NCBI GenBank assembly: GCA_963748225.1
Contig: CAVVHW010000015.1
Span: forward strand, 7,838-71,837
Length of the DNA: 64,000 bases
Source of the DNA: an uncultured Acidobacteriaceae bacterium
Lineage (GTDB): Bacteria > Acidobacteriota > Terriglobia > Terriglobales > Acidobacteriaceae
Direction: 5' to 3'
This document shows positions 4,705 to 60,578 of the stretch, one piece after another. The notes beneath the pieces are model-generated. The model saw only the letters and a program-made list of their open reading frames with translations. It searched no databases and was not told the DNA's origin. A program made the translations under genes and the position numbers. The stretch's first letter is position 1; every line of letters starts with the position of its first letter.

Positions 4705-4980
4705 CTATGAAAGCAACTCCGTCAACGCCCAAACGTGATCGGTTAGCCCCGCTTCCATCGCAGGAGTGACTCGAAGCGTTTGATGAACGCGGCAGAAGTT
4801 GTAAAAGGCGACATACAGCGTAACAGCCGCCTTGAGATTGTCCAGCTTTTTGCTGAACGCATTGGTTAAGCGGGTAAAACGGCGCAAGTGCATACGCAAA
4901 CTCAAATTCGATCTCTCCACAAAACTGGTAGAGATGTGCTTGGGGTCGGGCCGTTCGTGTCGTTTTATTTTTGTCATCAC
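4705..4980 (-). pseudogene. IS1-like transposase, C-terminal fragment
   Basis: The 91-aa ORF reads ...HISTSFVERSNLSLRMHLRRFTRLTNAFSKKLDNLKAAVTLYVAFYNFCRVHQTLRVTPAMEAGLTDHVW. This is the C-terminal block seen in IS1-family-type transposases. The catalytic N-terminal part is absent. A paralogous remnant lies at 38090-38311. Confidence 0.6.
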
Positions 4981-5190
4981 GAACCGACTTTAGTCGGTGA
5001 GGGACCTGCTTTTGCGAGTTTTTTAGCAGTAGTCTCTTTAGTCGGCTGAGGATTGTTTTTTCGCCCCTGCAAGCTCGATGGGAGCGCACGACTAAGGCCG
5101 CAGGGCGACACAATCGTAGCCCAGTGCGTAAGCACTGGGTAGGCTCCTAAATAGAACCCCGAGCCCCGTAGGGGGGGCGGCACTCTAACG
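4973..5190. repeat. composite array of short hairpin repeats (B-type head plus others)
   Basis: It starts with gtcatcacgaaccgactttagtcggtgagggacctgctttt (B family). Hairpins follow, such as agcccagtgcgtaagcactggg and gagccccgtaggggg, which recur at 22420-22620. Confidence 0.6.
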
Positions 5191-17761: not shown

Positions 17762-19294
17762 CTATCGCTTATTGGACGTCTCCCTTGCCCGGTTCTTGAT
17801 CCAGATTGGCGTGCCCACAAATCCAAAGGCCGCTCGAATCTGGTTCTCCAGAAATCGCTGATACGAGAAGTGCAGCTTCACCGCGCGATCGGTGAACAGG
17901 ATGAACGTGGGTGGCGACACGCCTGCCTGGGTCATATATAGAATCTTGACTCGCTTCGCCATCGGAACCGAAGCCCGCTCGAAATCAACCTTGGCGAGAA
18001 ACCGGTTCATCTCTCCGGTGCCGATGCGCTTGCGCCGCTCGCGTGACACCAGTTCCAGCGTGGAAAATACCTTGTCGAGATTTCGCCCCGTAGTCGCCGA
18101 AACAAACAACACCGGGGCGTACGACAAAAACTTCAGGTGCCGCCGAACCTGCTCCTCGTAAACGCTGCGGTCCGCAGGAGGCTTGCCGTCGGTCCGCTTA
18201 TCCGTGACGAGATCCCATTTGTTGATAACGATGATCACCGACCGTCCACTCTCATGCGCGTAACCGGCGATCGTGGCATCGCTGGCGGTGACACCTTCCA
18301 CCGCATCAATCAACATCAGTGCCACGTCGGCGCCCTCGAGATGCTTGCGCGCCATCACCACCGACAGTTTCTCGGCCATCAATTCCGTCTTGCCTTTGCG
18401 ACGAATGCCCGCCGTATCGATAAAGCGATACTCGAGTCCGTCGCGCTCGATGAGTTCGTCCACGGCATCACGCGTGGTGCCGGCAATCGGCGAAACAATC
18501 GCGCGCGACGTGCCGGTCAGCGCATTTAACAGCGTCGATTTGCCGACATTCGGACGGCCGATGATCGCGACGCGAGTCTCGCGGGGAAGCTCAGCCTCCT
18601 GTTCTTCTGTCCCCTCAGCTCTATCTGTCATTTCGATTTCATCTGTCATCCCGAGCGTAGTTCGGTCGCCGGCGGCGCCCGAACGGAGTCGAGGGACCTG
18701 CTTTTCGCCAATATCAGCCGCCGAGGCTAGCGGGGTTTGCTCCTCCGGCATCACGCTCAGAACATGCTCCAACAGTTCCGCAATACCGTTACCATTCTCG
18801 GCAGAGATGGGAAACAGTTCCTTGATCCCAAGCCGCCGGAATTCCTCGGCGTAAGGTTCAAGCTGCGGCGTGTCGGCTTTATTCACCGCCAACAACAGCG
18901 GCTTGCCGGTGCGCAGCAGCAATCGCGCGAGGTCAATGTCGGGAGACGCCAATTCGGTTCGCCCATCGACCACCAGAACAATCACGTCGGCCTCTTCCAG
19001 CGCTACCCGCGCCTGCCGAAAGATCTCCGCCGGAATCAGTTGTAGGTCGTCGGGAACGATGCCGCCGGTATCGACCACGCGAAACTTCTTACCGACCCAC
19101 TCCACATCGCCATAGATGCGATCGCGGGTGATACCAGGCTCGTCGCCAACAATGGCGCGGCGCGACCCGACCAGCCGATTGAACAGCGTTGACTTGCCGA
19201 CGTTAGGACGACCGACGATGGCCAGCGTCCCGGCTGTAGGCGGTTCGCCCTGTTCGGCAGTCCGGCTGGACTCAAATTGCATGCGACGATTCAC
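17762..19294 (-). CDS. der: ribosome-biogenesis GTPase Der (EngA) with repeat-derived linker insertion
   Basis: Two G domains (GRPNVGKSTLFN, DTGG, NKAD; GRPNVGKSTLLN, DTAG, NKWD) plus a KH-like C-terminus. The inter-domain linker contains the B-family repeat in frame. Confidence 0.95.
   Translation of the reverse strand: MNRRMQFESSRTAEQGEPPTAGTLAIVGRPNVGKSTLFNRLVGSRRAIVGDEPGITRDRIYGDVEWVGKKFRVVDTGGIVPDDLQLIPAEIFRQARVALEEADVIVLVVDGRTELASPDIDLARLLLRTGKPLLLAVNKADTPQLEPYAEEFRRLGIKELFPISAENGNGIAELLEHVLSVMPEEQTPLASAADIGEKQVPRLRSGAAGDRTTLGMTDEIEMTDRAEGTEEQEAELPRETRVAIIGRPNVGKSTLLNALTGTSRAIVSPIAGTTRDAVDELIERDGLEYRFIDTAGIRRKGKTELMAEKLSVVMARKHLEGADVALMLIDAVEGVTASDATIAGYAHESGRSVIIVINKWDLVTDKRTDGKPPADRSVYEEQVRRHLKFLSYAPVLFVSATTGRNLDKVFSTLELVSRERRKRIGTGEMNRFLAKVDFERASVPMAKRVKILYMTQAGVSPPTFILFTDRAVKLHFSYQRFLENQIRAAFGFVGTPIWIKNRARETSNKR
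18645..18709. repeat. B-family hairpin repeat located inside der
   Basis: gtcatcccgagcgtagttcggtcgccggcggcgcccgaacggagtcgagggacctgcttttcgcc. On the der strand it is translated as GEKQVPRLRSGAAGDRTTLGMT. Confidence 0.75.
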
Positions 19295-22419: not shown

Positions 22420-22620
22420 GCGCCAGTGAAATGAAGCAGGAAAGAAGCAGTCCCTCGGGGCGGAAGAGCTTAGCCCAGCGCTTCAGCGCTGGGGGAGTGA
22501 GAAATAAGACTGAGTCCCGTAGGGACGGCAGAGGTTGCGACACAGGTTCTGAAAGCCCGCTGACTTTAAGAAGAGCCAGTATCGGCGCGGGTGAAGCCGT
22601 GCCCTTTCAAGTCAGTCGAG
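22420..22620. repeat. composite hairpin-repeat array between queD and queE
   Basis: It contains agcccagcgcttcagcgctggg, gagtcccgtagggacgg and the C-family unit ggcgcgggtgaagccgtgccctttcaag (22584-22611). It is related to 4973-5190. Confidence 0.6.
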
Positions 22621-26570: not shown

Positions 26571-26721
26571 CGTCATCGCTTGTCGAGTTGTCATCACGAG
26601 TCGGCCTATCTTTTTGTCATCACGAGTGGGCTTCAGCCCGCGAGGGATCTGCTTTTAACTGCGCTCACGAAAGCCGTGGGTGCAGTGTTTCGCTTTGAAG
26701 GGGCACGCCTTCAGGCGTGCC
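26571..26721. repeat. B-family (three heads) plus C-family hairpin repeats downstream of kbl
   Basis: gtcatcgc..., gtcatcacgagtcgg..., gtcatcacgagtgggcttcagcccgcgagggatctgctttt (26616-26656), then ctttgaaggggcacgccttcaggcgtgcc (26693-26721). Confidence 0.65.
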
Positions 26722-39150: not shown

Positions 39151-39189
39151 GTCATCACGAGGCGGTTTCCGCCGAGGGACCTGCTTTTC
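39151..39189. repeat. B-family hairpin repeat between rplU and rpmA
   Basis: gtcatcacgaggcggtttccgccgagggacctgcttttc. A partial extra head, gtcatcaca, lies at about 39215. Confidence 0.7.
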
Positions 39190-39253
39190 GCCGGTTCCCG
39201 CGGATGGCGACAACGTCATCACAGGGTAAAGATTTTTTTTTGAGGATATTGCG

Positions 39254-60062: not shown

Positions 60063-60578
60063 TTCACCACGGAGGCACCGAGGACACAGCGTTTTAAAAA
60101 AATTGGGGAGAAATTCCTAGAAAGCTACGGAGTTCATGATCGGCGAGATGCAGAGAACGACCGGAAGGGTTGAGCTTATTGAAGCCGAGCTAACCGGCGA
60201 GATCATCGGGGCTGCTGTTTCTGTGCATCGGGAACTCGGGCCGGGTTTGCTTGAATCGACCTATGAAGCCTGCATGTGTCATGAGTTTGAACTGAGAGAA
60301 ATTCCGTTTCGCTGCCAGGTTGAGTTGCCTGTGGAGTACAAAGGCTGCCATCTGGACTGCGGATATCGCATTGACTTGGTTGTGGACAATCGTGTGATTG
60401 TCCAACTCAAATCGGTCGAAGGTTTATCGGCCATTCACGAATCGCAATTGCTCACTTATCTGAGGCTAAGCAGGCTACAGGTTGGACTACTTATCAATTT
60501 CAACGTTCCCATCCTGCGCAAGGGCATTGTAAGAAGAGTTTTATAGAAACTCCGTGCCCTCCGTGCCTCCGTGGTGAA
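60063..60578. mobile_element. TIR-bounded mini-element carrying a GxxExxY gene, inserted between secD and secF
   Basis: The left terminus 60063-60094 is ttcaccacggaggcaccgaggacacagcgttt. The reverse complement of the right terminus 60547-60578 is ttcaccacggaggcacggagggcacggagttt. The first 16 nt are identical and 28 of 32 match. The right TIR begins immediately after the cargo stop codon. Confidence 0.65.
60136..60546 (+). CDS. GxxExxY-family protein (PD-(D/E)XK nuclease-like fold)
   Basis: ELGPGLLESTYEACM contains the G-L-L-E-S-T-Y motif. RIDLVVDNRVIVQLKSV corresponds to the family's D...(E)xK block but has Gln where Glu is usual. LLTYLRLSRLQVGLLINF is the conserved C-terminal region. Confidence 0.85.
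   Translation: MIGEMQRTTGRVELIEAELTGEIIGAAVSVHRELGPGLLESTYEACMCHEFELREIPFRCQVELPVEYKGCHLDCGYRIDLVVDNRVIVQLKSVEGLSAIHESQLLTYLRLSRLQVGLLINFNVPILRKGIVRRVL

Follow-up and report, generated by a model that had tools for sequence, protein, structure and literature searches.

A dispersed hairpin repeat in frame within the inter-domain linker of the GTPase Der in an uncultured Acidobacteriaceae bacterium

The gene for the ribosome-biogenesis GTPase Der (der, or engA) of an uncultured Acidobacteriaceae bacterium (GTDB lineage Bacteria; Acidobacteriota; Terriglobia; Terriglobales; Acidobacteriaceae) contains a copy of a dispersed hairpin repeat, here called the B family, that is antisense to the gene. 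The segment is repeat-derived and part of the der frame, and comparison with related genomes suggests that it has a long history at this site. The gene lies in a stretch of 64,000 nucleotides (assembly GCA_963748225.1, contig CAVVHW010000015.1, positions 7,838 to 71,837 of the forward strand), referred to as the window and numbered from its first letter; the genome it comes from (G000) comprises 5.03 Mb in 16 contigs, with 57% GC and 93% completeness. The features of the locus are as follows.

17762..19294, minus strand: der (engA), an open reading frame (ORF) of 510 aa from the GTG at 19294; the public gene call has 506 aa from the ATG at 19282.
18536..18559, minus strand: second P-loop (GRPNVGKS), in G domain 2, directly downstream of the linker (from translation and invariant alignment columns).
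18584..18742, minus strand: linker between the G domains, Der residues 185-237, predicted to be disordered (from AlphaFold2 and a break in the PDB alignment).
18645..18709, plus strand: in-frame hairpin repeat of the B family, long form, antisense to der, where it reads GEKQVPRLRSGAAGDRTTLGMT (Der residues 196-217).
18645-18654, plus strand: head of the element, GTCATCCCGA, with 0 mismatches to the family consensus.
18655-18690, plus strand: interior of the element, 36 nt, containing the inner hairpin.
18660..18684, plus strand: inner hairpin, GTTCGG-TCGCC-GGC-GGCGC-CCGAAC (from the fold and from comparison with orthologous copies).
18691-18701, plus strand: tail of the element, GAGGGACCTGC, with 0 mismatches to the family consensus, followed by TTTTCGCC, a T-rich run.
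18623-18631 and 18641-18649 (region 18623..18649), plus strand: duplicated element head ATCTGTCAT, the copies 18 nt apart (from the sequence and the alignment).

The host protein has the hallmarks of its family: a KH-like domain comes after two G domains in tandem, and the TIGR03594 score of 506.4 bits, obtained over profile positions 2-430 of 432, exceeds the equivalog cut-off of 306.7. In the orthologue alignment, neither P-loop varies. The closest solved structures found by a PDB search are those of Bacillus subtilis EngA (4DCS and 2HJG, E = 4e-109), and the alignment to them is interrupted at residues 180-240, where the gap between the G domains spans ~60 residues here versus ~16 in the B. 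subtilis protein. In an AlphaFold2 model built from an alignment of 23 sequences, the G and KH domains flanking the linker are confident, and residues 185-237, insert included, have a predicted local distance difference test (pLDDT) score below 50 and no secondary structure. A preliminary description of the window had proposed structure prediction as a check on whether the insert is a surface loop, and the insert does fall in the predicted disordered linker; because of this predicted disorder and the length of the gap, it probably occupies the most permissive place that Der offers.

The 65-nt string assigned in that description to 18645-18709 is present there exactly, on the plus strand, and translation bears out that it lies inside der, between G domain 1 and the second P-loop, in a frame that stays open. 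The B family to which it belongs is dispersed and oriented, with the layout TGTCATCCCGA-hairpin-GAGGGAYCTGCTTTT; between a TGTCAT head and a TCTGC(T)n tail, an imperfect outer stem (CCCGAGCG / CGAGGGA) encloses a variable inner hairpin. A head-N-tail search of the 5.03-Mb genome returned 45 exact and 104 fuzzy copies, and 0 for the reversed pattern. Within the commonest class, of 37 nt, 226 of the 240 stem positions are paired across 22 different arm pairs, and therefore the hairpin is kept while its sequence varies. The family consensus is stop-free in four of the six frames. Three further copies, all intergenic, lie in the window.

4973..5009, plus strand: intergenic copy of the 37-nt class, GTCATCACGAACCGACTTTAGTCGGTGAGGGACCTGC.
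26590..26652, plus strand: intergenic copy whose head is duplicated (full copy at 26616-26652, partial head at 26590).
39151..39192, plus strand: intergenic copy that has the same 20-nt tail as the der copy.

These positions had been described as recurrences of the 65-nt unit. All are true members of the family, but only the ends are common to them (a head of ~10 nt and a tail of 11-20 nt); the copy at 39151 does yield GEKQVPR on the same strand, as had been noted, with 20 of 20 nt identical at 39173-39192. No second copy in the genome has the 36-nt interior found in der (one match at <=3 mismatches). The long form is rare in general, with 0-2 copies per genome and the der copy the only one in G000 and in genome G013. 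The inner stem of the window copy is longer than that of its orthologues (CCGAAC here, CCTCAC there) by virtue of two substitutions, and the duplicated head upstream belongs to a lineage-specific, in-frame expansion of 30 nt (peptide EIEMTDRAEG) that two other long-form loci, L002 and L003, do not have. Partial head duplications also occur in intergenic copies, for example at C15:34427 and C7:1081730. In predicted folding energy, the region of the der copy does not surpass shuffled sequence (z = -0.26 and 0.19). Nor does the insert behave like a miniature inverted-repeat transposable element, which has terminal inverted repeats and a target-site duplication: no direct duplication was found at the der junctions when filled and secondarily empty sites were compared, and the only duplication near them is the partial element head 18 nt away.

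To place the insertion in time, Der was collected from 104 loci and a tree was built without the linker; the nearest loci come from metagenome-assembled genomes (MAGs) of uncultured Acidobacteriaceae and Candidatus Korobacteraceae (Terriglobales) from bog, palsa and Danish soil. An element head and tail were found in the Der linker at 22 of the 104 loci, in every case antisense, in the same codon phase and at a similar distance from the ISAE motif, and all carriers fall within one crown clade (support 97/91). Lineages outside this clade have a shorter linker, of ~55-70 aa, with no trace of the element, even in genomes with 59-115 repeat copies elsewhere, and cultured Granulicella, with 0-1 repeat copies, have a different Der linker. 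The earlier claim that this segment is not ancestral Der sequence thus stands, since outgroup Der proteins are without the element and its DNA matches the family ends; the alignment of orthologues that had been suggested as a test finds the insert confined to one crown clade, and repeat-free orthologues with the same linker, which would have spoken against the claim, did not turn up. Where Der is without the insert, the genome has 24-84 repeat copies all the same.

Two intact forms and one decayed form of the element occur within the crown clade. The long form, with a 36-nt interior and reading ...PRLRS-x11-LGMT, is found in the window and at L002/3, L035/38/39, L049 and L017 (the last with a further insertion); the short form, with a 21-nt interior and reading ...PPLGLKSSVGMT, is found at L008-L011, L015, L016 and L060; and in a sister subclade (L004-7, L014) the long form has decayed but is still identical to the window copy at 30-35 of 58 nt in ungapped alignment, a level reached by <=1 of 20000 shuffles. 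Four loci without the element (L040-L043, Der 87-89% identical) are nested among long-form carriers and so most likely lost it. Therefore, the insertion is not an event of this genome alone, and it appears to predate the divergence of a genus-level clade in which Der is ~80% identical and 4-fold sites are saturated. The rarity of the long form likewise indicates that the window copy is an old resident and not a recent landing.

The two intact forms have also replaced one another at a fixed site. Locus L011 carries the short form and L049 the long form, and the two are sisters (support 92/78; forks under 80 are drawn open); their flanking codons are the same (GDPEHLG-DDGQQVPPL ... GMT-RKGS) and they differ by 15 nt in frame, so that the exchange affected the inner hairpin only. 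The same long/short contrast is seen between L017 and L060. Across the tree, the tail variants CTGCTTTTC, CTGCGGTTC and CTGCTGTCC (TTTTC, GGTTC and TGTCC) track clades while the interiors switch.

The element is also far better conserved at synonymous sites than the gene that contains it. Between these species, 4-fold sites in the der domains are 0.42-0.72 identical (median 0.51), and synonymous identity was compared for the following parts of the element.

Short-form codons: 0.92 in the element versus 0.57 in the der domains (P = 0.00015).
Element ends across 12 lineages: 0.94 versus 0.49 in the der domains (P = 0.0004).
Long form: 0.78 versus 0.52 in the der domains (P = 0.0026).

The element keeps codons that are rare in der (CCT, GGG and ACA make up 17%, 11% and 4% of their families), and its stem has undergone paired substitutions, from GGAC/GTCC to GGGC/GCCC in L012 and from TCGCC/GGCGA to TCGCG/CGCGA in L049. 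The excess of synonymous-site conservation means that something acts on the nucleotide sequence, either homogenisation or selection. Homogenisation against other copies of the repeat is the explanation we favour over selection, because several lineages can dispense with the peptide and the variants seen among the der copies are those of the dispersed family.

A candidate for the enzyme that acts on these repeats was found beside them. Inverted repeat pairs ~400 nt apart led to one gene for a small GIY-YIG protein, and a second lies between copies of a sister variant of the repeat.

G000 C12:112030-112326: GIY-YIG gene, 99 aa (Pfam E = 9e-13), between repeats at 111972(+) and 112419(-); locus 111972-112455.
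G000 C5:352314-352601: second small GIY-YIG gene, bracketed by the sister variant GTCATCCTGAGC...GAAGGACC; locus 352233-352690.

Pfam matches of these proteins to GIY-YIG have E values of 1e-8 to 1e-15; no NCBIfam model matches, and the best PDB match is UPF0213 protein 1ZG2 (E = 2.5e-6). Within the genus, 23 of 25 genomes (G000 among them) have homologues, with 1-6 copies in each; in the neighbouring family, 0 of 16 genomes do. Of 30 loci in these 23 genomes, 28 are bracketed by repeats within ~120 nt, the left one a plus copy and the right one a minus copy, and across loci the repeat subtype covaries with the nuclease subtype. This arrangement recalls the Ssn nucleases, single-domain GIY-YIG proteins that are flanked by NTS/SRM hairpins (NTS being CGTCATTCCCGCGMAVGCGGGAATCYRG) and that cut single-stranded DNA next to their own flanking repeat (Chenal et al., 2025, Nat Commun, PMC11893778). 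The acidobacterial proteins are 53-57% identical (E = 1e-24 to 1e-26) to proteins of two Alphaproteobacteria (one a MAG, and Sphingopyxis) that lie between canonical NTS (CGTCATTCCCGCGAAAGCGGGAATCCGG) or SRM repeats. At E <= 0.001, no homologue was found in Neisseria lactamica NS19 or N. mucosa, and at locus L187 an NTS pair 443 nt apart has no clear GIY-YIG ORF between its members. The B family has the layout of SRMs (a hairpin of 20-50 nt, a non-palindromic HGTCWY 5' flank and many copies), with inverted copies on both sides of a single-domain GIY-YIG gene; its head is TGTC and not CGTC in essentially all copies, canonical NTS having CGTC and the Sphingopyxis SRM TGTC. Because the repeats bracket GIY-YIG genes whose homologues sit between canonical NTS repeats, the family can be regarded as a divergent, SRM-like variant, although not as a proven member.

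Other roles and partners were considered for the family. In tandem gene contexts 26 copies run with gene direction and 28 against it, and 21 copies lie between convergent and 15 between divergent genes, a census that rests on crude gene calls which missed der itself; a role as terminators was rejected, as the lack of orientation bias relative to genes means that the copies are not simply terminators. A RAYT partner was also rejected, since the inverted hairpins beside the four PF01797 (Y1) genes of the genome are of other kinds, and no B-family copy flanks any of these genes. Three Y1 genes of the IS200/RAYT type (C16:4819-5148, C12:429589-429903 and C7:1079105-1079440; L031, L032 and L034) are each flanked by their own inverted hairpins of 25-60 nt, different from the B family. 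At the Rfam gathering score, none of the four repeat copies of the window gives a match; the sole Rfam match in the window is an Acido-Lenti-1 RNA (RF01687) at 22449-22493 on the minus strand (40.3 bits, gathering score 37). Elsewhere in the window, a 136-aa ORF (60136-60546) lies between 40-nt inverted repeats that separate secD from secF (60063-60578). A literature search found no paper describing the B-family repeats in Acidobacteria, an absence that does not amount to proof.

The der copy is one of several in coding regions. Every copy was screened for long stop-free frames to either side of it and then checked with Pfam; with apparent in-gene matches in over-extended 5' ORF ends left out, this identified at least five further genes in G000 with in-frame copies, one of them with two, and both orientations occur among them.

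C10:431277-434471: class II ribonucleotide reductase gene nrdJ, with LSSRTERSGVEGPAAL in the barrel domain and LSSRPEAAGSAAGAEGPAF near the C-terminus.
C7:44634-46364: tilS, with a copy between the PP-loop and C-terminal domains.
C10:566399-568270: ATP-dependent DNA ligase gene, with a copy in the N domain.
C5:204699-207224: penicillin amidase gene, with the repeat-derived peptide EKQVRRLLARRGSVARDDNGK just before the GSNNW motif.
C10:570753-571781: prmC, with a copy in the C-terminal tail, the frame ending ...HQQIPGGLKPARDDKKQRP*.

In the penicillin amidase, the site upstream of GSNNW is presumably where the spacer removed at maturation is located. The prmC frame runs into the repeat and ends in it, so that the stop codon as well as the C-terminal tail comes from the repeat; PrmC also has a VILSE-type stretch in its middle part. 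TilS and the ligase additionally hold a unit of the other hairpin family of the window (GTAKAVPLQ and GTPEGVPLQN, from TTGAAGGGCACGGCTTCAGCCGTGCC-type repeats). A fuzzy match in an M1 aminopeptidase gene (C3:39940) was discarded as a false positive, as no repeat-like peptide was found there.

Two of these sites can be compared across species. The loop of nrdJ (ATE...GAACPGW; loci L119-L144) is empty, at 52 aa, in three congeners (L128, L131 and L132) and, at 39-49 aa, in all genomes of the outgroup family; elsewhere it is filled by the B family, doubled heads, heptamer arrays or other repeat families, and at L144 (genome G004) it contains stop codons. Heptamer-type repeats take the place of the B family in Der at L047 and L053 and in more distant Terriglobales, and in this order the Der linker generally acts as a sink for dispersed repeats. 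In the linkers of L047, L053, L106, L109 and L110, SSELEPESSELEA and SHEPRATSHD derive from heptamer arrays, and there are GEQRTANSKARTAHGKGRTT-type stretches.

We consider it likely that the repeat copy in der stems from one old landing that has since been inherited vertically, with decay or loss in places, swaps of its interior and renewal of its ends. According to this proposal, a copy would have landed antisense in the acidic, disordered linker between the Der G domains in an ancestor of the acidobacterial genus and, because that frame has no stop codon, would have been translated ever since as ~22 floppy residues that disturb neither G domain. It would then have passed down vertically, decaying in one subclade and being deleted in a few lineages, and its inner hairpin would have been replaced at least twice, from long to short or the reverse, with the flanks kept. 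The ends and stems may have stayed near the consensus through gene conversion or template switching with other copies, not through the function of Der, and Ssn, by cutting the hairpin where the DNA is single-stranded, could have set off such events. The peptide would be neutral, and an Ssn-type nuclease would be the enzyme that spreads the repeat.

The main alternative on the history of the site is that different members of the family reached the der linker on separate occasions in different lineages, the linker acting as a hot spot or permissive sink. The nrdJ loop behaves in this way, being empty in some congeners and holding different repeat families and arrangements in others; heptamer-type repeats sit in the Der linkers of L047 and L053; and on the tree the two forms are interspersed, with 6 changes required for the short form, no better than shuffled labels. 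Repeated landings nevertheless seem unlikely to us, since all 22 copies agree in orientation, codon phase and place, tail variants follow clades through the switches of interior, identical flanks surround different interiors in L011 and L049, the decayed clade is homologous to the long form, and three separate landings at one site are improbable for a form present at 0-2 copies per genome. It is also doubtful, in our estimation, that the copy is under concerted evolution driven by the nuclease, in which Ssn would cut the hairpin in single-stranded DNA, repair would copy family members and the ends, stems and even entire inner hairpin of the der copy would be renewed or exchanged without a frame break; if this were so, SRM sites in core genes would be functional Ssn targets that affect, for instance, transformation or recombination of those genes.

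Exaptation would give the conservation a different cause: as an mRNA hairpin the element could set the pace of translation from one G domain to the next, as a binding site for Ssn or another protein it could protect or tag der in the course of recombination or transformation, or it could encode a peptide motif (QVPxL...GMT) of which Der makes use. The high conservation of synonymous sites relative to the der domains, the compensatory stem pairs (A-T to G-C in L012, C-G to G-C in L049), the two stem-lengthening changes in the window copy and an occupancy that dates from before the genus diversified would all fit such a role. We nevertheless regard it as quite unlikely, given that the element was lost in L040-43, was replaced by unrelated repeats in L047 and L053 and has decayed in L004-7 and L014, that the peptide interior is wholly different between the long and short forms, and that the fold energy is no better than that of shuffled sequence. 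Moreover, the family sits in frame in unrelated proteins and in both orientations, so the conservation follows the repeat and not der. Of the two possibilities raised in the preliminary description, that Der tolerates the element or has exapted it, the intact gene fits toleration, and the several lineages in which the element decayed or was lost speak for a peptide that Der can do without. An artefact, in which the assembly is wrong or der is broken or split so that the segment falls outside the protein, is extremely improbable. The exact 506-aa protein is carried by one contig only in the public collection, but the ORF is intact with all G motifs, and an unselected stretch of 66 nt would not stay open and in phase across so many species; an assembly error is excluded by the presence of the element, at this site and in this frame, in over 20 assemblies made independently from related species.

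Several observations weigh against the favoured account and should be set beside it. The search for donors found almost no other long-form copies, a scarcity that weakens a simple conversion of der by a paralogue, at least in the short-to-long direction (L049). The excess of synonymous-site conservation could equally reflect selection on the nucleotide sequence, and translation of the insert is deduced from the intact frame in many species. As for the nuclease, the subtype that would match the ends of the der copy (CCCGA...GGGACC) was not found in the 93%-complete genome, which has two small GIY-YIG genes only. In addition, the published SRM string HGTCWYN(0-2)YYVSBRHN(0-5)WNVSBRGN(0-2)RNCYNB matches 0 of the 104 copies; in this genome the string is at background (29 matches versus 40 in the reversed genome), and it does match canonical NTS. 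Because the published string misses the acidobacterial variant, the Ssn/SRM system is probably wider than has been catalogued.

These findings have several implications. Palindromic repeats within working proteins, best known from Rickettsia, are now seen in a free-living soil acidobacterium with a large genome, and the repeat appears to be tied to the recently characterised Ssn GIY-YIG single-strand nucleases. The der and nrdJ sites present the same permissive loop filled, swapped, decayed and emptied within one genus, and so provide a measure of repeat movement and homogenisation. For annotation, odd low-complexity linker stretches in core proteins of these MAGs are to be read as repeat-derived and not as errors.

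The insertion had been called unusual, a view that does not hold, both because further genes of this genome carry in-frame copies and because in-frame palindromic insertion is already known in kind from Rickettsia and other bacteria. Rickettsia palindromic elements (RPEs) lie in frame in many functional housekeeping genes (Ogata et al., 2000, as summarised in PMC10969869 and PMC3733652), and RPE-4 and RPE-6 are repetitive extragenic palindromic (REP) elements of the CGTC-tagged type (PMC3733652, PMC10969869). The likeness to RPEs is one of form and setting: in both cases palindromic repeats would be translated as an extra peptide at structurally permissive sites, whereas the present host lives free in soil and has a genome of 5 Mb, unlike the reduced genome of an intracellular bacterium, and the elements are of 28-65 nt versus ~100-150 nt for RPE-1. 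Intragenic GTAG- and CGTC-tagged REPs that contribute 20-30 residues have been described in several phyla, often in replication and repair genes, including the DNA ligase of Opitutus terrae (Di Nocera, De Gregorio and Rocco, 2013, PMC3733652); these too are short REP-type hairpins inside coding regions of known proteins, but the tag here is TGTC, not CGTC or GTAG.

REP/REPIN-RAYT systems likewise combine a dispersed hairpin with a low-copy cognate nuclease gene that has inverted copies of the hairpin on its flanks, with subtypes that co-vary, and differ in that the enzyme here is a GIY-YIG protein and not a HUH/Y1 tyrosine transposase, that no REPIN doublet is required and that mobility by the enzyme is putative. 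The resemblance to NTS/SRM extends to an oriented hairpin (CGTCAT-TCCCGCG-MAV-GCGGGAA-TCYRG in NTS, TGTCAT-CCCGAGCG-x-CGAGGGA-TCTGC here) with a GC-rich stem of the TCCCG...CGGGA type and a (C/T)GTCAT head, tens to hundreds of copies per genome, and inverted copies around a gene for a ~100-aa single-domain GIY-YIG protein. In contrast to NTS/SRM, the outer stem here has a GAG/GAG internal loop and the interior may hold a second variable hairpin of up to ~40 nt; in addition, ~7% of the copies here are in frame within genes, whereas NTS are rarely intragenic (2%) in N. meningitidis, Rickettsia being among the SRM-rich genera (PMC11893778). Set against these known systems, what is new here is the host group, the probable tie of an in-frame repeat to the Ssn system, a genus-wide history at one site, and evidence of maintenance at the nucleotide level and of interior exchange within an essential gene.

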